Below are positions 1,532 through 11,070 of a DNA stretch of 11,107 nucleotides, piece by piece. The position numbers and the translations under genes were made by a program. The notes under the pieces were generated by a model. That model was given only the letters and a program-made list of their open reading frames with translations. It was not told the origin of the DNA and made no database searches. Every line of letters begins with the position of its first letter. The stretch's first letter is position 1. Source of the DNA: Planctomycetota bacterium (GTDB lineage Bacteria; Planctomycetota; MHYJ01; WSZJ01); assembly GCA_038060895.1 (NCBI GenBank), contig JBBTCT010000009.1, positions 36,965 through 48,071 on the forward strand. The letters are read 5' to 3'.

Positions 1532-2554
1532 ATGCGTGCCGCCGCTCTCCTCATGCTCGCCGCGCTGTTCCCTTTCTCCCTCGCAGGTTGCTCCTGCGAC
1601 CTCGAGGAAGCCGGTGAACTCGCGACCCGCGCCCGTTCGGAACAGGACGCGGGCCGTTCGGCGGAAGCTCTTCGGGCCCTGGCGAGAGCCGGGGATTGCG
1701 TCCGGGGAGATGCCGTGGACGACCCGCGTGCGACCTACCTGCTCGCCGCCATTTACTTCAACTTCCACCTCCTGGGCGCGCCTTCGGCGTTCCCGGCGGG
1801 AGATCCTGAATTCCAGTGGGCGCTGGACGATCTCCAGGAGAGAAAGGAGCGCGACTTCCTCGCTCTGGCGTTCCGCGACATGCTGACGCTGGAAGAGAAG
1901 ACGTTCACGCTCGAGGACGTTCCGCCCTGGGCCACGGTCGATCGGCTCCTGATCTCGGCGGACGAATTGAGGACACGCGCAGAGGCGCTTCTTGCAGGCC
2001 TCGCATCCGACACGTTTGAGGACGTTCCGTCCGAGTTCGCCTCCGCGCAGATGCGCCTGGCGGTGCTGGACATGTCGCGCGGTTTCTGTGTTCAGGCGTG
2101 GCGGCGCGCGCTGGATGCGGGCCAGTCGGTCGAGCCGGCGCGCACGCGGCTGACGGGGATCTATCGGTCGTCGGCGGAAGCCTGGGACCGGGTCGCGAAG
2201 GCGGCCGCGAGGGATGCGGCGCGCAAGGCGGCGCAGGAAGAGAGCGACCGGTTTCGCGGGCTGGCGGAGAGGTCGGCGATCGTCATCACGCCGGAGGACC
2301 TGAATCACCCCGTCGAGCGGGAGATGCTCAAGCTTCTTGCGAAGGAGCATCTGCAGCACGGTCGCGGCTCCGCGAACCAGGGATTCGACGAAAAGCTGGC
2401 CGGCAACCGTGCCCGCGCCGCCGCGACTCTTCGGCGATCCCTCGCTCACTTCGTGCTCGCGCTCTCCATCGGCGTCCCGGACGAGGGGGACCGCCGCGGC
2501 GCCCTCGGTTACCTTCATGACCTGATGCTCGCCCTGCGGGAACTCGAACGATGA
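1532..2554 (+). CDS. Hypothetical lipoprotein, predicted mostly alpha-helical
   Basis: 340 aa. Signal peptide MRAAALLMLAALFPFS with lipobox LAGC (Cys20). Ala/Leu/Arg/Glu-rich helical body. ATGA overlap with the next ORF. Confidence 0.8.
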   Translation: MRAAALLMLAALFPFSLAGCSCDLEEAGELATRARSEQDAGRSAEALRALARAGDCVRGDAVDDPRATYLLAAIYFNFHLLGAPSAFPAGDPEFQWALDDLQERKERDFLALAFRDMLTLEEKTFTLEDVPPWATVDRLLISADELRTRAEALLAGLASDTFEDVPSEFASAQMRLAVLDMSRGFCVQAWRRALDAGQSVEPARTRLTGIYRSSAEAWDRVAKAAARDAARKAAQEESDRFRGLAERSAIVITPEDLNHPVEREMLKLLAKEHLQHGRGSANQGFDEKLAGNRARAAATLRRSLAHFVLALSIGVPDEGDRRGALGYLHDLMLALRELER

Positions 2555-3411
2555 CGGATGAGGACGGAACACTGCCCGCCCCGGCTGTTCTGCGCCGCGC
2601 GATTCTCCTGGCGCTCGCCCTCGGCGCATGCGCCGCCGTTTTCGGCTTCGTCCACCTGGCACGCCGACTGGCCGACGCCCGCGCGAGCGGGGCCAGATTG
2701 GCCGGACGGCTCGAGCTGGCCGAGCGGGGGCAGGCCGCGACGGAAGCAATTCGCGGCGACCTCGAGTCGGCCCTCGTCACCTGGCAGGACGACGAGGCCG
2801 GACACGCCTGGCTTTCGCACTGCGCATTTCCCGTCGATGCGACGCCGGCCGGCGGAGCGGCCCTTCCCGCAAACGGCCGCTCAACCCTCCTTCTTCTCGC
2901 CCGGCCTCAACGGTTCGCGGATCCTTCCGGAACCGCGCAGGGCATGATCATGACCGTCCGACTCGTCGCCTGGTACCCGGCCGAGTCGCCGGACGCTCCC
3001 GCCTTGCTCTCCTGGGAGTCCGAGCCGCTGGCGTCGGCCGACTGGCTCGCCACGCTTCTGGAAGAAGACCGGAGAACCGCGGTCGAGACCCTGGTCGAAG
3101 GGGGCGTCCGACTGGCCTGGTCGTCCGCAGCGGCGAGCCCGCGAACTCTCGACACGATCTCCGGCGACGTCGCGGTCGATGAAGCGCTGCGGGTAACGAT
3201 CCGCGGAACCGTACGGCGCTGGTGCGGAGACGCGCCCGGAGCGCCGGTCCTCGCTCGCGGCCTGGGACACCCGGCCTTTTATGTCGAGTTCTCGGGCCCG
3301 CCCGGGTCGAGGCGAGGCGAGATCCACCTCACCATGGAGCTGCTCCTTCCCGGCCAGGAAGGAATTCTGCGCCGGGAGTCCGTCGCCGTCGCCTCCGGCT
3401 TGAAGGGCTAA
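2551..3411 (+). CDS. Hypothetical N-terminally anchored/exported protein, loosely pseudopilin (PulJ/PilW)-like
   Basis: 286 aa, translationally coupled through ATGA at 2551-2554. Hydrophobic N-terminal segment RRAILLALALGACAAVFGFVHL, helix AATEAIRGDLESA, beta-rich C-terminus. Confidence 0.7.
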   Translation: MTDEDGTLPAPAVLRRAILLALALGACAAVFGFVHLARRLADARASGARLAGRLELAERGQAATEAIRGDLESALVTWQDDEAGHAWLSHCAFPVDATPAGGAALPANGRSTLLLLARPQRFADPSGTAQGMIMTVRLVAWYPAESPDAPALLSWESEPLASADWLATLLEEDRRTAVETLVEGGVRLAWSSAAASPRTLDTISGDVAVDEALRVTIRGTVRRWCGDAPGAPVLARGLGHPAFYVEFSGPPGSRRGEIHLTMELLLPGQEGILRRESVAVASGLKG

Positions 3412-4778
3412 TCGCCCTTCAGGTTCATCAGCAACTCCGCGTTCGTCCGGTACTTCTTCATCTTCTGCTGCAGCAACTCGATCACGTCCCCCGGGTCCCG
3501 GATGTCTGCCACGAATTTCCGAAGCCACAGAACCCGCTTGAATTCGTCCGGGTCCATGATCAGCTCGTCCTTCCTCGTCCCGCTCTTGTTCAGATCGAGT
3601 GCGGGGAAAATGCGGCGGTTGCCGGCGCCGCGGTCGAGGTAGAGCTCCATGTTCCCCGTGCCCTTGAACTCCTCGAAAATCACCTCGTCCATCTTGCTCC
3701 CCGTGTCCACAAGGCACGTCGCCAGGATCGTCAGGCTCCCGCCGTTCTCGATCTGCCGCGCGCTGCCGAAAAACATCTTCGGCTTCATGAGCGCATCGAC
3801 GTCCATCCCGCCGCTCATGATCTTGCCGCTCAGCCCCGCGAGGTTGTTGAACGCCCGGCCCATCCGCGTGATCGAATCCACCAGCAACACCACATCCTTG
3901 CCGTATTCGACCAGCCGCCTTGCCTTCTCCAGCACCATGTCCGTCACCTGCGCGTGCCGCTGCGGCGCTTCGTCAAACGTCGAGGCCACGACTTCGCCCC
4001 TGATGAAGCGCTTCATGTTGGTGACTTCCTCGGGCCGCTCGTCGATCAGCAGCACCATCACCATGACCTCCGGGTGATTGACCTCGATCGCGTGCGCGAT
4101 GTTCGCCAGCAGGATCGTCTTCCCGACCCGCGGAGGCGCGACGATCAGGCCGCGCTGCCCCTTGCCGATCGGCGAGAAGAGATTGACGATGCGCGAAGAA
4201 ATTTCGTCCGGGTCGTGCTCGAGGAACAGGCGCTTGTGCGGGTGAAGGGGAGTGAGGTCCTCGAACGCTTTCCTCTTCAGCGCCTTCTCGGGCATTTCGA
4301 AATTGACGGAGTCGATCTTTAGAAGCGCGAAGTACTTTTCTCCCTCTCGCGGCGGACGGATCTGGCCGACGATCGTGTCGCCCTGCTTGATCCCCATGCG
4401 CCGGATGATCCCGGGCGGGATGTAGACGTCGTCCGGGGACGGCGTGTACGAGTACGCCGCGCTTCGCACGAACCCGTATCCGTCCGGCATCGCGTCCAGC
4501 ACGCCCTGGCAGATCGTCAAGCCGTTGAGTCGCGTGTGCTCCTTCACGATCCGGTAAATGGTGTCCTGCCGCGTCGCCCCCAGCGTGTCCGAGGCCCCCA
4601 GCGACCTCGCGAGCTTCACCAGGTCCGCCTGCCGGTACGCCTGGATCTTGTGCAGAAAGAGGTCCGGCGGCGGCGGAGGCGGAAGAGCCGCCGGCTCGGC
4701 GGCGGCGGGTGGTCCGTCCGGTACGCGGTCGGGCACGGGTTTCGGTGAATCCTGCGGGTTGGCCAGCGGCTCGGGCAT
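3408..4778 (-). CDS. rho: Transcription termination factor Rho
   Basis: [38 protein letters not shown] (P-loop), [46 protein letters not shown] 4778 is preferred over TTG 4805 because it follows AGGAAAGGA. Confidence 0.98.
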
Positions 4779-4881
4779 GACGTCCTTTCCTGTGGAGTGT
4801 CTCAAGGTGTCGGTCGAGTTGTCACACGCGACCGTGGCTCAAATGCCCCCGGGCGCGGGCGGAGCTTTCTTCCGGCGCGCT

Positions 4882-5478
4882 TCAGCGCGCCGACTGCCTC
4901 ATCACGGCTTCAACTTGTTTTTCCAGGTTCTCAACCGGCCCGCTGTTCTCGATCACGGCGTCCGATTCGGCTCGCTTCCGTTCCGGAGACCACTGCAGTC
5001 TTTCTCGCCGATCCAGCTCCCCATCCGCCCATCCCCTCTGCCGAGCCCGCTCCCGTCTTGCCGCTTCGGGCGCTTCTACGAAGACGACCTTGTGGACCGT
5101 TCCTTTCATTCCCGCTTCAAGCAGAAGCGGCGCATCGATCACGACGACGCCCCTGTAGCCCGCGTCCTGCCAGTTTCCAACGATGCTCGCGATTTCCCGG
5201 GACACGAGCGGGTGCATGATTGAGTTCAGTTTCCTGGCGCCCTCTGCGGTGGCAAACGCTTCGCGGGCCAGTTTCGCGTGGTCGATCCGTCCGCTTGTCT
5301 CGACGTCTCCAAAGGCGGCCACCAGGTCGCGGCAGGCTTCGGGGAGGTCGAGAAGGGACTTGGCGAGGGAATCGGCATCGATGACGCGCGCGCCGTGGCG
5401 CTGGAACGCGTTGGCGACGGTGGACTTGCCGCTGGCGATGCCTCCTACCAGGCCGATGAGGTACGGGCGATCGGTCAA
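4882..5478 (-). CDS. coaE: Dephospho-CoA kinase
   Basis: IGLVGGIASGKSTV P-loop, VIDAD, LNSIMHPLV, VVIDAPLLLE, VIEN. TTG start. Confidence 0.95.
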   Translation of the reverse strand: MTDRPYLIGLVGGIASGKSTVANAFQRHGARVIDADSLAKSLLDLPEACRDLVAAFGDVETSGRIDHAKLAREAFATAEGARKLNSIMHPLVSREIASIVGNWQDAGYRGVVVIDAPLLLEAGMKGTVHKVVFVEAPEAARRERARQRGWADGELDRRERLQWSPERKRAESDAVIENSGPVENLEKQVEAVMRQSAR

Positions 5479-5537
5479 GGGGCGCTGAGTGTGGAGAGAA
5501 GTGGGGAAGTGCGGGAGAGAGGAGGAATTGAGGTGGC

Positions 5538-5567
5538 AGTGTAGTGCGGATCAGGCGTGGGAGTCAA
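5538..5567 (-). promoter_or_regulatory. Sigma70-type promoter for coaE-rho (TTGACT-N18-TACACT)
   Basis: The reverse complement of 5562-5567 is TTGACT and of 5538-5543 is TACACT, about 60 nt upstream of the coaE start. Confidence 0.6.
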
Positions 5568-5621
5568 GTTGGAAGGGTTCGAGCGGCGAGCGGCCCAGGT
5601 CGGCTCGCAGCGTCATTTGAC

Positions 5622-5650
5622 TTGATCCTCGATCCGTCGCTGGCTATCCT
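5622..5650 (+). promoter_or_regulatory. Putative promoter TTGATC-N17-TATCCT
   Basis: TTGATC at 5622-5627 and TATCCT at 5645-5650, upstream of GGAGG and the ATG at 5703. Confidence 0.5.
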
Positions 5651-5702
5651 CTTCCCTCAAGAACGACCGGGGGGTCGTCTTTCTTCGTCACGGAGGGTAT
5701 CG

Positions 5703-5903
5703 ATGCGCTCCAGGCCCATCGCCATCGCCCTCTTCGTCGTCGCTTCCCTCGCCAGCGCCGAGCCACCCAGGTCAGCCCGACCCGAAACGGGCGGCGTCGT
5801 ATGCGACTCGTTCACGGCGTCGTTGGTGAACAAGCGCTGGAATTCAACGGAGGAAGTGGGGAAGGCAGAGGATTGGAACCGGCCGTTTCAGCAGAAGAAG
5901 TAG
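5703..5903 (+). CDS. Small secreted protein (66 aa) or 5' remnant of a decayed gene
   Basis: SD GGAGG at 5692-5696, ATG at 5703, classical signal peptide MRSRPIAIALFVVASLASA-EPP. The remainder is short and possibly frameshifted. Confidence 0.5.
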   Translation: MRSRPIAIALFVVASLASAEPPRSARPETGGVVCDSFTASLVNKRWNSTEEVGKAEDWNRPFQQKK

Positions 5904-6059
5904 CCGGAATAGATCGCGGTGTTCAACGCGCTGATGGCGGCGCGGCCGGACGACAGAGAAGCACAGCAGGTGAAAGTGACGCTCAAGAAGCCGGGGGTGA
6001 AGCTTGAGGAGCCCGCGAAAAAGTAGGGTGGAACGCGTTCAAGGCCAAGGCGTTAGGTT

Positions 6060-6109
6060 TTGACACGGCGGTTCCGAACCCTATAATCGCGACCCTCAAC
6101 ATTGGAGGT
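6060..6109 (+). promoter_or_regulatory. Consensus sigma70 promoter TTGACA-N16-TATAAT plus SD GGAGGT
   Basis: TTGACA at 6060-6065, TATAAT at 6082-6087, GGAGGT at 6104-6109, ATG at 6116. Confidence 0.85.
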
Positions 6110-6115
6110 TGCCGC

Positions 6116-7315
6116 ATGTCCAGAGCAAGTCGGGGCATCAGCATCATTTGGGTGATCCTCACCGTGGCGCTCGCGCTCGGTGCGTCGGTCACGGCGTTCC
6201 TCCAGTACCTGGAGGTCCAGACCCACAAGGAATGGAAAAAGCGGGCGGAGACCGAAGCCGCGGCGTTCGAGAAAGAGCGCCGCGAAGTCGGGTTCCGCGA
6301 CATCCAGGAGGTCTGCCTCCTGTTCGGCTTCAAGTTCGAACAGGAGTCGGACATCGAGAAGACCCTGGGCGCGATGAAGGATCGCCACGAGGCGAAGAAG
6401 ACGCAGTACGCCCTCCCCGGCAAGGCGATGGCGATGTGGGAAATCATCCACGCCGCGGAGATCAACTACGAGATCGCCGCGCATCGCAGCGTCACTGCCA
6501 AGCAGTTCAAGTCCGAATCGGAATCGGCGATGAAGTCGAGCCAGGAAGTCCTGAGCAACTACGCGCGCCTGAAGGACGAGGAAATCAACGAGCTCCAGGC
6601 GAACCTGACGAAGGTAACGGACGTGCAGACGGAAGACGTCCGCCGCTACGAGCTTCGCAAGAGCACGCTCGAGGCCGAAGTGACCAAGCTCACCCAGGCG
6701 AAAACGGACCTCACGAAGGCCCAGAACGCCGAGACGCTCGACCTGAACAATAAGGTCAACTCGGTGGATACGGCGCTACGCGAGCTGGTGAAGCAGGAGG
6801 CGATCTTTCACGACCTGACCGAAATGCAGGGGCGGATCGTGGACCCGCACCAGGACGAGAAGTACGCCTTCATCAACCTCGGCGCGCGCGACCGTCTGGT
6901 GCGCGGGCTGAAGCTGGTCGTCTTCGTCCGCGAGCCCGGCGGCAACGTCCGGTGGAAGGGCGAAGTCGAGGTGAAGGACATCTTTGCCGAGTCGGCGAAA
7001 GTTTCGATCACGGAGACCGTGGATCGCTTCGATCCGATCATCGAGGGCGATGTGGTCTTCAATCCGCTCTTCAGCCCGAGCCGCCCGCGCAAGGTTGCCT
7101 TCGTCGGCGAATTCGCGAAGACGAAGTACAGCAAGGAACAGGCGGCGAACCGGATCCGCAACATCGGCTCGATCGTGCAGGACGCCGTGACGGACGAGAC
7201 CGATTTCGTCATCGTCGGCGAGTCGTACCAGTCCGACCCGAACTTCGAGAAGGCGCAGCTCCTTTCCGCGCCGTGGCGCCCGCACTTTGAAATCTTCCGG
7301 TTCCTGGGTGACTAA
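6116..7315 (+). CDS. Membrane-anchored coiled-coil protein with beta-barrel and C-terminal BRCT domain (paralogue A)
   Basis: 399 aa. TM ISIIWVILTVALALGASVTAFLQY; K/E-rich coiled coil; barrel GRIV...AFINLGARDRLVRG...KGEVEV...PIIEGDVV (about 6824-7075); BRCT-like VAFVGEF...IRNIGSIVQDAVTDETDFVIVGE...FEKAQLL (7088-7315). Confidence 0.9.
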   Translation: MSRASRGISIIWVILTVALALGASVTAFLQYLEVQTHKEWKKRAETEAAAFEKERREVGFRDIQEVCLLFGFKFEQESDIEKTLGAMKDRHEAKKTQYALPGKAMAMWEIIHAAEINYEIAAHRSVTAKQFKSESESAMKSSQEVLSNYARLKDEEINELQANLTKVTDVQTEDVRRYELRKSTLEAEVTKLTQAKTDLTKAQNAETLDLNNKVNSVDTALRELVKQEAIFHDLTEMQGRIVDPHQDEKYAFINLGARDRLVRGLKLVVFVREPGGNVRWKGEVEVKDIFAESAKVSITETVDRFDPIIEGDVVFNPLFSPSRPRKVAFVGEFAKTKYSKEQAANRIRNIGSIVQDAVTDETDFVIVGESYQSDPNFEKAQLLSAPWRPHFEIFRFLGD

Positions 7316-7327
7316 GGAGACATAGCG

Positions 7328-8818
7328 ATGCAGAAAGATACGAGCGGACTCGTCGCGATCATCCTCAGCGCCCTCGTCTTTGTCGGAACGGGCGTCTGGT
7401 GGTACTTCAGCTACGACGAGGTGATGAACGAGCAGACCGGCCTGAAGAAGCAGCTTAAGGAGGCCCGCGAAGCGCGCAACCAGGCCGAGGAGAAGCTCGA
7501 CAAGATGACGCGCCAGGGCGACCAGCTCGCCGATCTGGTTGGCATGAATGCGACCATCGACGGACGGCCGAGCGTCAAGGCCATGATCGAGCACCTGAAC
7601 CTCTGGGCGGTGCGCCTGGGCACGACCCCGTGCAAGACCAAGTACGGCAGCTGGATGCAGGATCCCGATTCGCTCGAGATCAAGGTGGGGGGCTCCGCGG
7701 AAGCGGGCGGCCGCGATCTCTGCTACCTGAAGGATTCGCGCGCTTCCGCTGAAACCCGCATGGCCAACGAGACCGCCGACGTCCAGCAGTACCTCGTCGC
7801 CGAGCTCGAGAACATGACCGCGGCTCTTCTTGCCGAAGCCCAGACATGGGAGAACGAGGCCGTCCGCGCGATCACGACGCACAACGAGAACGTGGGAGAC
7901 GGGAAAAGCCAGGGCAAGCTGGGCACGCTGATCGAGGAAAAGACGCGCCGCATCAAGGAGCTGCGCGAGGCCATCCGCAACATCGAGGAGCAGATTGCCT
8001 CGAACCAGAAGAACAGCGAGCAGGCGATTGCTGATCTTGAAAAGGACGTTCGCACGAAGCTCGACGACCTGGACCAGATGAAGGCGAAGCAGGAAAAGGT
8101 CGTGGCCGACAAGCGGGCGAGGATCCAGGAGCTCCAGGACCGCGTGTTCGCGATTTCGACGAAGCGGCAGCTGGCGCGCGAGAGCACGGAAGCCGACGGG
8201 ATGGTCATCAACTCGATTCCGAACGAGCTGACGGCCTGGATCGACATCGGCCGCAAGGACGCACTTCTCAAGGGGACGATCTTCGAAGTGTTCGCCATGA
8301 ACAAGGGCGGGCGCAAGGAGAACAAGGGCAAGGCGGTCGTCATCTCGGTGAACGAGGACTACGCCGTGATTTCGCTTCTGCGCGACGGAATCGTGCAGAT
8401 GTTGGACGGCACGGTCTACGAGGGCAAGGTGGTCGAGAAGGGCAACGTGGTCGAGATCACCGAGCGGAACGGCAACAAGCTCATGATTCCTGCCGACCGC
8501 GTGAAGCGGCTCGACTACTACCAGGATTTCGGCCGGATCGAGAAGGGCGACTATGTTGCCAACGAGGTCTTTGACCGCAAGAAGTCAAAGACGTTCGTAT
8601 TTGGCGGCAAGCTGCGCGGGCGGTACACGAACGAGCAGATGACGCACCTGATCGAGGAGTTCGGAGGCGAGGTTGACGCGGAAGTCCAGAGCGAGACGAC
8701 GTATCTCGTGGTCGGCGCGGACTTCGAAAAGGACCCGAACTTCGACAAGGCGAAGAACCTGGCGGTCAAGATCATCCGGGAGGCGGATCTGTACGAAATG
8801 CTTGGTGTCTCAAGGTAA
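7328..8818 (+). CDS. Membrane-anchored coiled-coil protein with beta-barrel and C-terminal BRCT domain (paralogue B)
   Basis: 496 aa. SD AAGGAG overlaps the upstream stop. TM LVAIILSALVFVGTGVWWYF; long heptad coiled coil; barrel DGMVI...AWIDIGRKDALLKG...KGKAVV...IEKGDYV; LigA-like BRCT KTFVFGGKL...LIEEFGGEVDAEVQSETTYLVVG...FDKAKNLAVKIIREADLYEML (8588-8818). Confidence 0.92.
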   Translation: MQKDTSGLVAIILSALVFVGTGVWWYFSYDEVMNEQTGLKKQLKEAREARNQAEEKLDKMTRQGDQLADLVGMNATIDGRPSVKAMIEHLNLWAVRLGTTPCKTKYGSWMQDPDSLEIKVGGSAEAGGRDLCYLKDSRASAETRMANETADVQQYLVAELENMTAALLAEAQTWENEAVRAITTHNENVGDGKSQGKLGTLIEEKTRRIKELREAIRNIEEQIASNQKNSEQAIADLEKDVRTKLDDLDQMKAKQEKVVADKRARIQELQDRVFAISTKRQLARESTEADGMVINSIPNELTAWIDIGRKDALLKGTIFEVFAMNKGGRKENKGKAVVISVNEDYAVISLLRDGIVQMLDGTVYEGKVVEKGNVVEITERNGNKLMIPADRVKRLDYYQDFGRIEKGDYVANEVFDRKKSKTFVFGGKLRGRYTNEQMTHLIEEFGGEVDAEVQSETTYLVVGADFEKDPNFDKAKNLAVKIIREADLYEMLGVSR

Positions 8819-8835
8819 GTTGAGTGAAGGACGAC

Positions 8836-8865
8836 AAGCCCCCGGCGATGAGCCGGGGGTTTTTT
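8836..8865 (+). terminator. Intrinsic (Rho-independent) terminator
   Basis: AAGCCCCCGGC-GATGA-GCCGGGGGTTT stem-loop ending in a T6 tract, 17 nt after the stop of 7328..8818. Confidence 0.9.
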
Positions 8866-8873
8866 CGTACACA

Positions 8874-8992
8874 GGGGGTAGGAGGTAGGGGGTAGGAAGG
8901 GCCGGAATCATCCCGTCTTCGCGCCCCGACGGCTCCCTGAATGCCCTACCAACTACCAACTACCCCCTACCCACTCCCCCGAAGGGGGGTAG
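8874..8992. repeat. Inverted arrays of 7-bp tandem repeats (GRGGTAG x3 ... CTACCMM x4-5)
   Basis: GGGGTAG GAGGTAG GGGGTAG at 8875-8895; CTACCAA CTACCAA CTACCCC CTACCCA CTCCCCC at 8946-8980; a further GGGGGGTAG at 8984-8992. Confidence 0.8.
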
Positions 8993-9001
8993 ACTTCTCT
9001 G

Positions 9002-9787
9002 ATGGCACTTGCAGAGCACGACACGGAGCGCGACCTCGAAGGCCACCGCATGACGTTTGGTGAGCACCTGGAGGAACTGCGGCAGCGGCTCATCTACTCC
9101 TGCATCGGCGTCCTGCTTGCGGCGGGCATCTGCTTCTTCTGGCAGCAGGAGCTCATGTGGGCGGTGACATGGCCGCACCGCTCGGCGCAGGAGTCGCTCG
9201 GCAACCCCCCGGAACTCGTTGTGCTCGACTACGCCGACCGGTTCATGATTCCCATGAAGGTCGCGCTCATCTTCGGCCTCGCGCTCTCAGCGCCCGTGAT
9301 CCTCTGGCAGCTGTGGAAGTTCATCGCGGCGGGGCTGCACCCGAACGAGAAGAAGTACGCGCTCATCTGCGGACCGGCGTCCCTGCTGCTCTTCTTTGCG
9401 GGCGCCGCCTTCGGGTACATCGTCCTCATCCCGGTGACGCTCAAGTTCCTCGGCTCGTTCGCGGCCGACTGGAACATGTTCCAGGAGCAGATCGCGCTCG
9501 ACAAGTACCTCGACATGTTCTTCGCGCTGACCGTCGCGGCCGGCGCGATTTTCGAAATCCCCCTCATCATGACGTTTCTCTCATTCGTGGGCATCGTCCC
9601 CCCGAAGACTTTTGCATCGTGGCGCAAAATGGAAATCCTCGTCGCGGCCATCCTGGGCGCCATCCTGACGCCGGGTGGCGACCTGGTCTCGATGGCATCG
9701 CTCGCCCTTCCCATCGTGATCCTCTACGAAGTGGGGATTCTCGCGGGCCGGCTGGTTTACAGGGAGCCGGCGGAAGCGGCAGCCTAG
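9002..9787 (+). CDS. tatC: Twin-arginine translocase subunit TatC
   Basis: MTFGEHLEELRQRL, PVILWQLWKFIAAGLHPNEKKY, AIFEIPL, AILTPGGDLVSMASLALPIVILYEVGI, with about 6 hydrophobic segments. Confidence 0.97.
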   Translation: MALAEHDTERDLEGHRMTFGEHLEELRQRLIYSCIGVLLAAGICFFWQQELMWAVTWPHRSAQESLGNPPELVVLDYADRFMIPMKVALIFGLALSAPVILWQLWKFIAAGLHPNEKKYALICGPASLLLFFAGAAFGYIVLIPVTLKFLGSFAADWNMFQEQIALDKYLDMFFALTVAAGAIFEIPLIMTFLSFVGIVPPKTFASWRKMEILVAAILGAILTPGGDLVSMASLALPIVILYEVGILAGRLVYREPAEAAA

Positions 9788-9990
9788 TGGAACATCAAGC
9801 TCGTTTCAGGAGGCCATGAAGGCGTGCCTGGTGCCGGGTGCGACTTTTTACGCGAGGCACGGGGAACTTCCCGGAAAAGCAAACTTCCACCATCAACCCT
9901 GACGCTCCACGAGCCCATTCGCAGTTGTTCATTTCGCAAGCCCTACCCCGCGGCTATCATCCGCCCCCTTCTCCAACCTGGAATCCCTTC

Positions 9991-11070
9991 ATGCCCCGCC
10001 TGGCCCTCGTCGGAACTCCACAGACCGGCAAGACCACGCTCTTCTGTGCCCTCACCGGCACCGACTACGCCAACGCCGTCGTCCAGGCGGGCGCCGGCGG
10101 CGGCAAAGCGCGGATCGGTGTGGCGAAGATCCACGACGCGCGGCTCGACAAGCTCTCCGCGTGGCACAAGCCGAAAAAGCACACGCCCGCCGTCGTCGAA
10201 TTCGCGGACACCGCTTCCCTCGTCCTGACCCCTGAAGGCCGGGACAAAAACAACCAGCTCCTGGCTTCCTTCCGGAACGAGACGGACGGCCTCGTCCTAG
10301 TGGTCGCGGCCTGGAGAGGCGACGACCCCTCGGCGCTGCGGACCGAGGCGGAAATCAAGGCGGAGGTCGACCAGCTCGCGACGGAGTTCGTTTTCGCGGA
10401 CATGGCGATTGCGGAGTCGCGGATCGAGAAGCTGAAGGTGCAGGTGACGAAGCCGACGCCGACGCAGGAGAAGGACAAGAAGGAACTCGAAGTGCTGAAG
10501 GTTCTGTACGCGGCGTTCGGCGACGGGAAACCGGCTTCGGCCGTGGCGCTGAAAGGGGAGGACGCGAAGCTGGTGCGCGGATTCCGCTTCCTGTCCGAAA
10601 AGCCGACCATGGTGGCGCTGAACGTACCGGAGACGGCGCTGGGCAAGTCCTTCGCAGTGCCGGGGTACGCGGTTGTCCCGGTTTGCGCGAAGCTCGAGCT
10701 CGAGCTCCTCGGCATGGAGCCCGCCGAGCGCGACGCTTTCATGGGGGACTACGGCCTGAAGAAACTGGCGACGCCGGAGCTGATCCTCTGCGCCTTCCGT
10801 TCTCTCGGCCTGCAGTATTTCTTCACGGCCGGGGACGACGAGTGCCGCGCCTGGATCATCCGCAAGGGCGACGACGCAGTGGAGTCGGCCTCCAAAATCC
10901 ACAGCGACCTGGCGCGCGGCTTCGTGGCGGCCGAGGTGGTGTCGTTCGCGGACTGGGAGGCGGCGAACGGGGACATGAAGCTGGTGAAGTCGCGGGCGCG
11001 GCTGCGGCAGGAGGGGAAGGCGTACGTTGTCGCCGACGGGGACATCATTAATATCAAGTCCGGCGTCTGA
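9991..11070 (+). CDS. ychF: YchF/OLA1-family P-loop NTPase with TGS/DUF933 C-terminus; divergent motifs
   Basis: The start at ATG 9991 (MPRLALVGTPQTGKTTLF) matches the family N-terminus. DARLDKLS...PKK.TPA, FLSEKP, and C-terminal LGLQYFFTAGDDECRAW...KIHSDLARGFVAAEV...EGKAYVVADGDII. Confidence 0.85.
   Translation: MPRLALVGTPQTGKTTLFCALTGTDYANAVVQAGAGGGKARIGVAKIHDARLDKLSAWHKPKKHTPAVVEFADTASLVLTPEGRDKNNQLLASFRNETDGLVLVVAAWRGDDPSALRTEAEIKAEVDQLATEFVFADMAIAESRIEKLKVQVTKPTPTQEKDKKELEVLKVLYAAFGDGKPASAVALKGEDAKLVRGFRFLSEKPTMVALNVPETALGKSFAVPGYAVVPVCAKLELELLGMEPAERDAFMGDYGLKKLATPELILCAFRSLGLQYFFTAGDDECRAWIIRKGDDAVESASKIHSDLARGFVAAEVVSFADWEAANGDMKLVKSRARLRQEGKAYVVADGDIINIKSGV

Follow-up and report, generated by a model that had tools for sequence, protein, structure and literature searches.

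Membrane-anchored stalks that carry β-barrels have been described in several settings. MreC consists of a membrane helix, a coiled coil and β-barrels, and HlyD-type adaptors combine a membrane helix, a coiled coil and a barrel. EzrA and ZipA, which act in division, are anchored in the membrane by an N-out helix and lie in the cytoplasm. Among barrels of other origin, those at the N-termini of the F1-ATPase subunits pack side by side as a crown, and both these and the FliI barrel are cytoplasmic. In BRCT domains a Ser or Thr ahead of a conserved Gly makes up the phosphate pocket together with a basic residue, and every characterised BRCT domain is, to our knowledge, cytoplasmic or nuclear. Planctomycetes do without FtsZ when they divide, and their periplasm is unusual and enlarged; very few components of their envelope or division machinery are known. 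FlgT, which lacks a membrane anchor, a coiled coil and a BRCT domain, is a further point of comparison. According to a recent report, FlgT-C is a periplasmic docking module that touches FlgI and MotY in the Vibrio H ring, each H ring holds 26 FlgT subunits, and the domains of FlgT include an N-terminal and a TolB-like middle domain (bioRxiv 10.64898/2025.12.04.692373).

Here we describe two adjacent genes, A and B, in a stretch of 11,107 nucleotides of planctomycete DNA (the window). Each encodes a protein made of a signal-anchor helix, a long helical stalk that is partly of putative coiled coil, a six-stranded barrel and, at the C-terminus, a LigA/RFC1-type BRCT domain. We tentatively read the pair, at a little short of an even chance, as a non-enzymatic stalk scaffold specific to Planctomycetota that is probably periplasmic and probably an A:B heteromer.

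A conserved two-gene transcription unit

The unit spans positions 6060-8868 of the window (Table 1). Just two promoter-like sites were found between positions 5400 and 9200, against 0.5 +/- 0.8 in shuffled sequence. Both promoter hexamers, -35 and -10, are identical in 6/6 sequences while the spacer between them is variable. The leader of A is almost invariant, one locus (L004) deviating at 2 positions, and the gap between A and B is 12 nt. The terminator hairpin has a predicted stability of -27.5 kcal/mol (z -4.65), which none of 200 shuffles equalled, and its stem is identical in all six sequences; it is absent from the output of a simple terminator scan. Promoter, Shine-Dalgarno sites and terminator are all kept in five related Planctomycetota loci. 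The initial annotation of this DNA had described a self-contained transcription unit with a full-consensus promoter, a pair of strong Shine-Dalgarno sites and an intrinsic terminator; these data bear it out. It had also raised the possibility of a planctomycete host, with which the related loci agree, all five being from Planctomycetota or Planctomycetia MAGs.

Table 1. Features of the A-B unit, in positions of the window.
Feature	Positions	Strand	Remarks
Sigma-70-type promoter	6060..6087	+	TTGACA 6060-6065, 16-nt spacer, TATAAT 6082-6087; 12/12 matches
Leader of gene A with Shine-Dalgarno site	6088..6115	+	GGAGG 6104-6108, 7 nt 5' of ATG
Gene A, 399 aa, single-pass membrane protein	6116..7315	+	orthologs in 5/5 loci; dN/dS 0.086-0.210
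A residues 8-29, sole hydrophobic segment, read as signal anchor	6137..6202	+	Kyte-Doolittle windows
A residues 127-237, heptad-patterned helical stalk	6494..6826	+	crude in-house heptad heuristic
A residues 238-322, six-stranded β-barrel, I-N-L-G-x-R-D motif	6827..7081	+	AF2 model, Foldseek
A residues 323-399, divergent BRCT domain	7082..7312	+	homology to the BRCT of B; LigA BRCT 1l7b
Shine-Dalgarno site of gene B	7314..7319	+	AAGGAG, 8 nt 5' of ATG; overlaps TAA stop of A
Gene B, 496 aa, single-pass membrane protein, paralogue of A	7328..8818	+	dN/dS 0.090-0.218
B residues 7-27, sole hydrophobic segment	7346..7408	+	acidic flank after it: D30, E31, E35
B residues 72-140, without heptad pattern	7541..7747	+	cysteines C102 and C132, both invariant
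B residues 141-290, helical or coiled-coil stalk	7748..8197	+	heptad signal peaks at 196-290
B residues 291-418, barrel homologous to that of A	8198..8581	+	beta-rich insertion of ~45-55 residues (~346-400)
B residues 419-496, BRCT domain of LigA/RFC1 type	8582..8815	+	Pfam PF00533
Intrinsic terminator	8836..8868	+	GC-rich hairpin 8836-8862, then six T

Conservation was assessed across these five close relatives, all at least 81% identical. Across them, identity amounts to 81-92% for A and to 83-93% for B, and tblastn against the same relatives gave 81-87% for Rho, 78-87% for TatC, 87-93% for YchF, only 69-73% for CoaE and 55-68% for orf340. Judged by these identities, A and B are conserved to the same degree as Rho, TatC and YchF. 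Gene B is intact in 4/5 of the loci and split into two frames in the remaining one (L005). A adjoins B in all five, which says little because the loci are close relatives. The neighbours in the window and in all five loci are rho, coaE, tatC, ychF and unknowns; the four named genes give no clue to the function of A and B. In the Atlas rows the family seems confined to Planctomycetota.

Parts of A and B and their relatives

In their C-terminal halves A and B are paralogous. BLASTP aligned A235-398 with B287-493 (E 1e-15, 25% identity, about 45 extra residues within the B barrel), and hhalign joined the two ortholog profiles with a probability of 97.8% (E 9.5e-13). Homology between the N-terminal halves was not detectable by these comparisons. 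The four motif pairs that the initial annotation had listed as shared all fall inside the BLASTP and hhalign alignments, and its claims of paralogy and of a common layout (membrane segment, helical stalk, barrel and BRCT in both proteins) hold as well.

All Kyte-Doolittle windows above 1.6 are N-terminal, giving one hydrophobic segment per protein. In A the tail ahead of this segment carries R3 and R6, both invariant. A residues 30-126 are probably helical, like the stalk that follows. A crude in-house heuristic, with register shifts, found a heptad pattern in B at residues 30-71, 128-189 and 196-290; on A the same heuristic gave register shifts and low core scores, and coiled coil in the two stalks is a possible but uncertain reading of these sequences. 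B keeps both C102 and C132 in 5/5 sequences, next to residues that vary.

The AF2 model of the A barrel (pLDDT 76) has six strands. Foldseek ranked FlgT 3w1e first (E 2e-3, TMq 0.55; 92 columns with an rmsd of 6.1); no match reached E <= 0.001. Next in the list come barrels from the N-termini of F1-ATPase and FliI, with the LPHT ring 8z5n at rank 4. FlgT also recurs among the fold matches of the B model, which is of low confidence over the barrel (pLDDT about 54-78). The N-terminal barrels of F1/V1-ATPase alpha/beta and of FliI are of the same class (E 3e-3 to 5e-2, TMq 0.5-0.6); those barrels, however, sit in cytoplasmic or matrix-side ATPases, and A and B have no P-loop domain. On these models the barrel falls, marginally, into the structural class that FlgT-C shares with the N-terminal barrels of F1-ATPase and FliI. 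In an Atlas structure search, four clusters of hypothetical proteins from Planctomycetota reached TM-scores of 0.85-0.90, and an FG-GAP cluster, 12% of whose members carry FlgT_C, reached 0.74.

At the sequence level the barrel had no match in Pfam or the PDB, and the barrel profile did not match FlgT in the PDB. Neither the A nor the B barrel matched FlgT_C (PF16538) at E <= 10 (0/12 aligned members). Of the earlier suggestion of a FlgT-C-like barrel, a likeness of fold is possible, with FlgT as the top but marginal Foldseek match; a counterpart in sequence at E <= 10 is missing. What A would share with FlgT, the best PDB fold match of its barrel, is a six-stranded barrel. A and B differ from FlgT in having an anchor, a stalk and a BRCT domain and in lacking a FlgT_C sequence match, and there are no flagellar genes nearby.

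The BRCT domain of B matches Pfam PF00533 over residues 421-491 with 36.9 bits (cut-off 21.3, E 4.2e-9). That of A scores 15.6 bits, under the 21.3 cut-off, and counts as a BRCT domain because it is homologous to that of B, which passes. The top PDB match for the BRCT of A is the LigA BRCT 1l7b (E 0.007-0.008), and a joint A+B profile matched both 1l7b (E 3.5e-9) and the LigA of E. coli, 2owo (E 8.5e-7). B also matched the RFC1 BRCT 2ebu (E 9.7e-5). The NCBIfam LigA model TIGR00575 matched B at the C-terminus alone (E 9.9e-9), over model positions 584-652 of 652, scoring 34.1 bits on B and 21.3 on A against a full-length cut-off of 444; neither protein qualifies as an NAD-dependent DNA ligase, with its adenylation, OB, Zn-finger and HhH domains. 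The AF2 model of B 277-496, made from a 12-row alignment, has a mean pLDDT of 56, and its BRCT part is mostly below 50 with three short helices only, so that it does not confirm the three-layer α/β fold of BRCT domains.

Sequence homology to LigA and RFC1 thus covers the last ~75 residues of A and B. In A and B, by contrast, the BRCT domain is fused to a membrane anchor, stalk and barrel, with no ligase or clamp-loader domain. Where RFC1 and LigA read 'ITG' in the alignments, B has 'FGG' and the profile 'FVG', so that the Thr-Gly position holds Gly-Gly in B and Val-Gly in A. The Ser/Thr-Gly of the phosphate pocket after strand 1, which marks the phospho-binding subclass rather than the fold, is lacking in the alignments of both proteins. 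The A domain has a pI of 6.8, the B domain one of 5.1. Compared with LigA/RFC1, the A and B domains therefore have Gly or Val for Ser/Thr, are neutral to acidic and are possibly periplasmic. Since Ser/Thr is replaced and the domains are neutral to acidic, we read them as protein-binding modules. The heads would then not be readers of DNA ends or phosphopeptides.

No full-length match to a known family was found in Pfam, NCBIfam, PADLOC, PHROGs or the PDB, in line with the initial annotation, which had recognised no named system. Searches of A and B found no catalytic domain. PADLOC gave nothing beyond coiled-coil noise (E >= 0.01). The strongest PHROGs matches (E 2e-8 to 2e-5) are the BRCT ends of ligases; the others cover coiled-coil or helix stretches, among them a single family without known function (E 1.5e-4), the rest being at E >= 0.003. 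Known anti-phage defence or phage proteins were considered and rejected, as neither PADLOC nor PHROGs gave a family match beyond the BRCT domain. The combination of a membrane stalk with a BRCT domain was not found in the published BRCT literature searched, and the family appears to be unstudied.

Orientation, pairing and competing readings

Flanking charges and the conserved cysteine pair suggest that stalk and head are probably periplasmic, with an N-in/C-out anchor. The flank after the B helix is acidic (net -1). Within 15 residues to either side of the A helix, however, 2 Lys+Arg precede it and 4 follow it, a count that points against this orientation. Sub-threshold matches would fit an extracytoplasmic location: the B N-terminus weakly resembles Rz-like i-spanins (E 0.003-0.056), and the insertion in the B barrel is similar to the C-terminal end of a Leptospira anti-sigma factor (E 0.0036). 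A periplasmic BRCT domain would be without precedent. The opposite topology, N-out/C-in as in ZipA and EzrA, would leave stalk, barrel and BRCT in the cytoplasm, where they could tether DNA or phosphoproteins to the inner membrane, for instance to anchor the nucleoid there or to scaffold Ser/Thr-kinase signalling. The Lys+Arg count of A favours it, as do the DNA-associated, cytoplasmic nature of LigA/RFC1-type BRCT domains, the cytoplasmic location of the F1-ATPase and FliI N-terminal barrels that rank among the best fold matches, and the N-tails of A and B, which at 6-7 residues are as short as N-out insertion requires. A and B share with EzrA and ZipA a single N-terminal helix, a very short N-tail and a long helical region after it. 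Their flanking charges differ, however, and a sequence or fold match is lacking: the residues right after both helices are acidic or neutral, without the RK cluster that follows the helix in ZipA, EzrA and RNase Y, and the two invariant Arg of the A N-tail would need to cross the membrane. The invariant Cys pair of B, the pI values and Gly or Val residues of the BRCT domains, and the periplasmic FlgT as top fold match also argue against a cytoplasmic head, and we consider this topology rather unlikely. If the BRCT head is periplasmic, the known range of the domain extends past DNA and phosphoprotein biology; if it is cytoplasmic, A and B are a new type of membrane tether.

Complex prediction with A127-399 and B196-496 gave a score of 0.48, against 0.00 for the best of 3 controls. 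At least 68% of contacts agreed between runs, and the pLDDT of the partners was at least 72. The pass mark is reached by 58/80 solved complexes and 2/110 mismatched pairs, and passes scoring 0.60 or under comprise 7/80 solved complexes and both passing mismatches, counts that hold roughly for A:B since the alignments used were shallow and self-made. By the tool's own statement a pass this weak is more often wrong than right unless pairing is likely beforehand. The proposal that A and B interact gains a pass clear of the controls, one that the tool itself grades as weak. In our reading A and B probably form a heteromer.

Three further readings concern what the proteins are. Highly diverged MreC-like elongasome scaffolds with an acquired BRCT tail would have the same order of parts, namely an N-terminal membrane helix, coiled coil and barrels, and the B barrel with its insertion could mimic the two barrels of MreC. 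MreC 6zm0 is indeed the top Foldseek match of the B C-terminal half (E 9.3e-3), with 7eft and 6zlv further down the list, but these fold matches are weak: they come from a low-confidence model (pLDDT 56) with TM-scores of 0.24-0.28, and MreC is missing among the best 50 matches of the better model, that of A. Pfam MreC (PF04085) gave nothing at E <= 10 for the barrels (0/12) or at E <= 0.1 for the full-length proteins, A and B carry an extra BRCT domain, and mreB, mreD, pbp2 and rodA are missing from the window and the five loci, giving no mreBCD context. An MreC relationship is accordingly a slim prospect. Slimmer still is a role as periplasmic adaptor-like or spanin-like parts of a trans-envelope export or membrane-fusion device. 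Its basis is the HlyD-type order of helix, coiled coil and barrel together with the weak spanin matches of B, but those matches span the helix and first coiled coil only and are probably compositional. HlyD, lipoyl and adaptor-barrel domains were not found in Pfam or NCBIfam, no transporter, outer-membrane factor or lysis gene is present in the window or the five loci, and PADLOC and PHROGs gave no indication of a prophage. A division or budding scaffold that specifically replaces the FtsZ-dependent machinery, the strongest proposal of the initial annotation, would be in keeping with the apparent restriction of the family to Planctomycetota among the Atlas rows, with conservation equal to that of housekeeping genes, and with a barrel class that builds the F1 crown and, in the H-ring report, a ring of 26 FlgT subunits. 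Against it, the window and the five loci contain no division, peptidoglycan or chromosome-segregation gene, a search of the literature on BRCT in Planctomycetes/Planctomycetota found nothing relevant, and the titles and abstract openings of the planctomycete divisome literature showed no such protein among the matches listed. We regard this specific role as very unlikely.

Proposed role in the envelope

Under the stalk-scaffold reading that we favour, A and B would pair side by side through the barrel-proximal stalk and the homologous heads. This would place two barrels and a pseudo-tandem BRCT pair roughly 15 nm or more off the inner membrane. In the planctomycete envelope the pair, constitutively and strongly expressed, would act as a structural scaffold or tether and not as an enzyme. 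A bolder version, which we hold to be unlikely, is a periplasmic heterodimeric or higher-order ring-forming stalk with FlgT-like barrels and the first extracytoplasmic BRCT domains, serving as a core envelope scaffold of Planctomycetota. Such a stalk might serve as a link from the inner membrane to either the wall or the outer membrane, or might organise a form of budding or division that does without FtsZ. Because of their Rho-like conservation, their strong and conserved expression signals and a combination of stalk and BRCT not found in the literature searched, A and B are a concrete candidate for an envelope or division component.

The strength of the expression signals suggests that both proteins may be abundant. 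GC by codon position in the + frames is 0.61/0.36/0.88, and the GC3 of A and B (0.87-0.89) resembles that of rho and tatC. The long antisense ORFs are shadows, with an atypical distribution of GC over codon positions.

The A/B operon and its conservation

We found that A and B, the two genes of a candidate operon in the window (6060-8868, plus strand), are a real, conserved and uncharacterised planctomycete gene pair whose combination of domains is unusual. Every expression signal described in the initial annotation was located, namely a promoter, two Shine-Dalgarno sites and a terminator.

Features of the A/B transcription unit (window numbering)
Feature	Position	Strand	Description
Gene A	6116-7315	+	ORF, 399 aa
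Gene B	7328-8818	+	ORF, 496 aa
Promoter	5' of A	+	TTGACA, 16-nt spacer, TATAAT; matches at 12/12 positions
Shine-Dalgarno site of A	7 nt 5' of A's ATG	+	GGAGG
Shine-Dalgarno site of B	8 nt 5' of B's ATG	+	AAGGAG; overlaps the stop codon of A
Terminator	8836-8862	+	Hairpin, then six T; -27.5 kcal/mol, z -4.65

Only two promoter-like sites, that of the operon included, were found in 5400-9200, compared with 0.5 in shuffled sequences. The terminator hairpin was overlooked by a simple terminator scan; none of 200 shuffles was as stable. The G+C content of the window is 60-70% (500-base windows), and the codon-position G+C of the forward frames (0.61/0.36/0.88) follows the pattern expected for real genes of this genome. 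Using codon-position G+C we rejected as shadows four antisense ORFs (6776-7882, 7723-8343, 5983-6465 and 6053-6484, minus strand) and an overlapping plus-strand ORF (6109-6753). An Rfam scan of the window returned no family.

A scan of genome contigs matched 37 stretches, 5 of which encode a relative. All five relatives (L001-L005) lie on Planctomycetota or Planctomycetia MAG contigs, and each keeps the order A, B, tatC, ychF. The full order orf340, orf286, rho(-), coaE(-), upstream gene, A, B, tatC, ychF was kept in the four loci whose contigs reach far enough upstream for it to be assessed. Identity was 81-92% for A (5 orthologs) and 83-93% for B (4 intact orthologs), with dN/dS of 0.086-0.210 and 0.090-0.218, respectively. 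By tblastn, conservation of A and B is on a par with that of Rho (81-87%), TatC (78-87%) and YchF (87-93%), and far exceeds that of CoaE (69-73%) and of two unknown proteins encoded upstream (52-68%). Both promoter hexamers (-35 and -10) are unchanged in all six sequences (the window and its relatives) while the spacer between them varies; the terminator stem is likewise unchanged in all six. Since the relatives are all close, these comparisons demonstrate purifying selection and conserved expression signals rather than family breadth. The B ortholog of L005 is split over two reading frames (6511-7560 and 7133-7804; whole 6511-7804) and about 50 of its stalk residues have no match, which may reflect a MAG assembly error or a real disruption or decay.

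Searches of Pfam, NCBIfam, PADLOC, PHROGs and, by sequence, the PDB gave no full-length match to A or B, the hits being confined to the BRCT domain and to coiled-coil noise, and tblastn of B against plasmids gave no match. When B was used in a feature search of the Atlas, a collection of protein clusters, the matches were clusters of hypothetical proteins, all bacterial, and Planctomycetota was the commonest phylum in each. The four clusters shown number 52-120 members each, 363-432 aa long, and in three of these four a BRCT domain is carried by 42-85% of members. These cluster-level matches, combined with those of an Atlas structure search using A, point to several paralogous lineages inside the phylum.

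Stalk, barrel and BRCT domains

A and B each carry just one hydrophobic stretch, read as the membrane segment, at the N-terminus (about 8-29 in A, about 7-27 in B). By our own heuristic, a heptad pattern follows at 127-237 in A and at 30-71, 128-189 and 196-290 in B. The sequence pattern makes a coiled-coil stalk likely, not proven, because the registers shift and the core of A scores low. Since the registers shift and the heuristic is unreliable, AA, BB and AB pairing are not comparable by heptad register.

Significant homology between A and B begins only at the end of the stalk (BLASTP E 1e-15; hhalign 97.8%, E 9.5e-13) and extends through the head, that is, the barrel and the BRCT domain. 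The barrel of B contains an extra insertion of about 45-55 residues. An AF2 model of A 228-326, built from a 12-row alignment, has six strands and a mean pLDDT of 76. Foldseek against the PDB placed the Vibrio flagellar protein FlgT first (3w1e, E 2e-3, TMq 0.55) and ranked the Vibrio LPHT ring fourth; N-terminal barrels from F1-ATPases, V-ATPases and FliI were interspersed with and below these matches, and no match reached E <= 0.001. FlgT is described as part of the H ring (bioRxiv 10.64898/2025.12.04.692373). The Atlas model of A matched four clusters of Planctomycetota hypothetical proteins at TM 0.85-0.90 (262-515 aa, 117-169 members) and, at TM 0.74, an FG-GAP cluster with FlgT_C in 12% of its members. 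The barrel returned no family from Pfam and its profile no sequence match from the PDB; hits to MtrB, KIN17, DbpA, NfeD and PilZN1 were at chance level. An Atlas feature search of A's barrel likewise gave no usable match among named clusters. Thus the proposal that the barrel is FlgT C-terminal-like is consistent with the structural matches but marginal, since none reached E <= 0.001 and sequence searches did not bear it out; FlgT is the best fold match for A's barrel without a sequence match.

Against the Pfam BRCT model B scored 36.9 bits, above the cut-off of 21.3, and A scored 15.6 bits, below it. A joint A+B head profile matched the BRCT domain of Thermus LigA (1l7b, E 3.5e-9), E. coli LigA (8.5e-7) and the BRCT domain of RFC1 (1e-4), and with the profile of A alone LigA BRCT was still the top match (E 0.008). 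The NCBIfam LigA models aligned only by their C-terminal ends. An AF2 model of the C-terminal half of B had a pLDDT of 56, with the BRCT part mostly below 50, and the BRCT fold was confirmed by none of the structure models. The Thr-Gly of RFC1 and LigA, at positions that we take to be the phosphate pocket, aligns with Gly-Gly in B and Val-Gly in A, and the BRCT pI is 5.1 in B and 6.8 in A. We infer from these sequences that both domains would be protein-binding modules, binding neither DNA ends nor phosphopeptides. By titles and abstract openings, literature searches on BRCT with Planctomycetes or Planctomycetota returned nothing relevant, and those on bacterial periplasmic BRCT domains returned none among the matches listed. 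No membrane-anchored bacterial BRCT was among the matches listed for prokaryotic BRCT architectures.

Pairing, orientation and possible role

We predicted the complex of A127-399 with B196-496 and obtained a score of 0.48, while the best of three controls scored 0.00. The runs shared at least 68% of contacts and partner pLDDT was at least 72; the output named no interface. Among solved complexes 58 of 80 reach the pass mark, as do 2 of 110 mismatched pairs; these counts hold only roughly here because we used shallow alignments of our own. Passes scoring 0.60 or less comprise only 7 of the 80 solved complexes together with both passing mismatches. The prediction, weak in grade, raises the odds of an A:B heteromer a little without establishing one.

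The proteins are probably oriented N-in/C-out, with stalk and head in the periplasm. Counted for this orientation are two invariant Arg in the N-tail of A, acidic or neutral residues right after both helices (the 15-residue flank of B has a net charge of -1), the invariant C102 and C132 of B amid an otherwise variable stretch, and the periplasmic location of FlgT. Sub-threshold matches to Rz-like i-spanins and to the C-terminus of a Leptospira anti-sigma factor point in the same direction. Counted against it is the K+R number around the helix of A, 2 before and 4 after. BRCT domains are, to our knowledge, all intracellular, and the barrels of F1-ATPase and FliI are cytoplasmic; both count against a periplasmic head. 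The alternative to which these points lead is a cytoplasmic A and B that would tether DNA or phosphoproteins, and we consider it rather unlikely.

The reading we favour, tentatively and at somewhat under an even chance, is that A and B are a constitutively expressed, non-enzymatic scaffold. In it a helical stalk anchored in the membrane, probably as an A:B heteromer, would keep the head away from the inner membrane; the head, with two barrels resembling that of FlgT and a pair of degenerate BRCT domains, would most likely lie in the periplasm and dock some partner there. A dedicated division or budding scaffold is a narrower form of this reading and an improbable one; the planctomycete divisome literature held no such protein among the matches listed. 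Foldseek with the low-confidence model of B returned MreC (6zm0, E 9e-3) and FlgT (E 1e-2), a list that is a lead at most because confidence in the model is too low, and a diverged MreC seems very improbable. An adaptor-like or spanin-like device would agree with the i-spanin matches, and we give it hardly any weight. No defence-system or phage family in PADLOC or PHROGs fits A or B. The initial annotation had proposed an envelope complex forming a hetero-oligomeric stalk or ring; its observation of the gene pair was confirmed and its interpretation partly supported, with location, assembly and function being what we infer.

Neighbouring sequences and genes

About 30 bases 5' of the -35 (about 6029-6059) are near-invariant in five of the six sequences and include the short inverted repeat AACGC...GCGTT. 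This stretch might act as an UP element or an operator, or be where the transcript of the upstream gene ends. Between the terminator of B and tatC lies an imperfect inverted repeat of GGTAGG-like units (8873-8980; arms 8873-8896 and 8945-8980, complementarity 83-86%). It is common to the window and L001 only, is absent in L002-L005, has no Rfam match and is possibly either an insertion or a small repeat element.

In L002 (4423-5208), L003 and L004 the product of the gene just 5' of A is thioredoxin-like and has a signal peptide. At all three loci an in-frame TGA stands at the first Cys of the would-be C-x-x-C, giving U-x-x-C; the protein is a candidate selenoprotein. In the window (5544-6026) this gene is reduced to a remnant, orf119 and, in frame with it, an ORF of 35 aa, with two TAG stops between them and the redox-motif part deleted.

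The ychF ORF (9838-11070) is listed with a GTG start at 9838. Alignment to its relatives does not begin before residue 24-44, and an internal Met near residue 52 precedes the G1 motif; translation probably begins some 150 nt further downstream. Further upstream, orf340 and orf286 (1532-3411) are overlapping ORFs of unassigned function without a Pfam or NCBIfam match, conserved as a pair in all four loci that reach them (identity 52-68%). A lipoprotein-like N-terminus (L-A-G-C) is seen in orf340, and a single hydrophobic segment in orf286. Rho (3408-4805, minus strand) is extended at its N-terminus by about 50 residues, rich in Pro and Ala, ahead of its RNA-binding domain.
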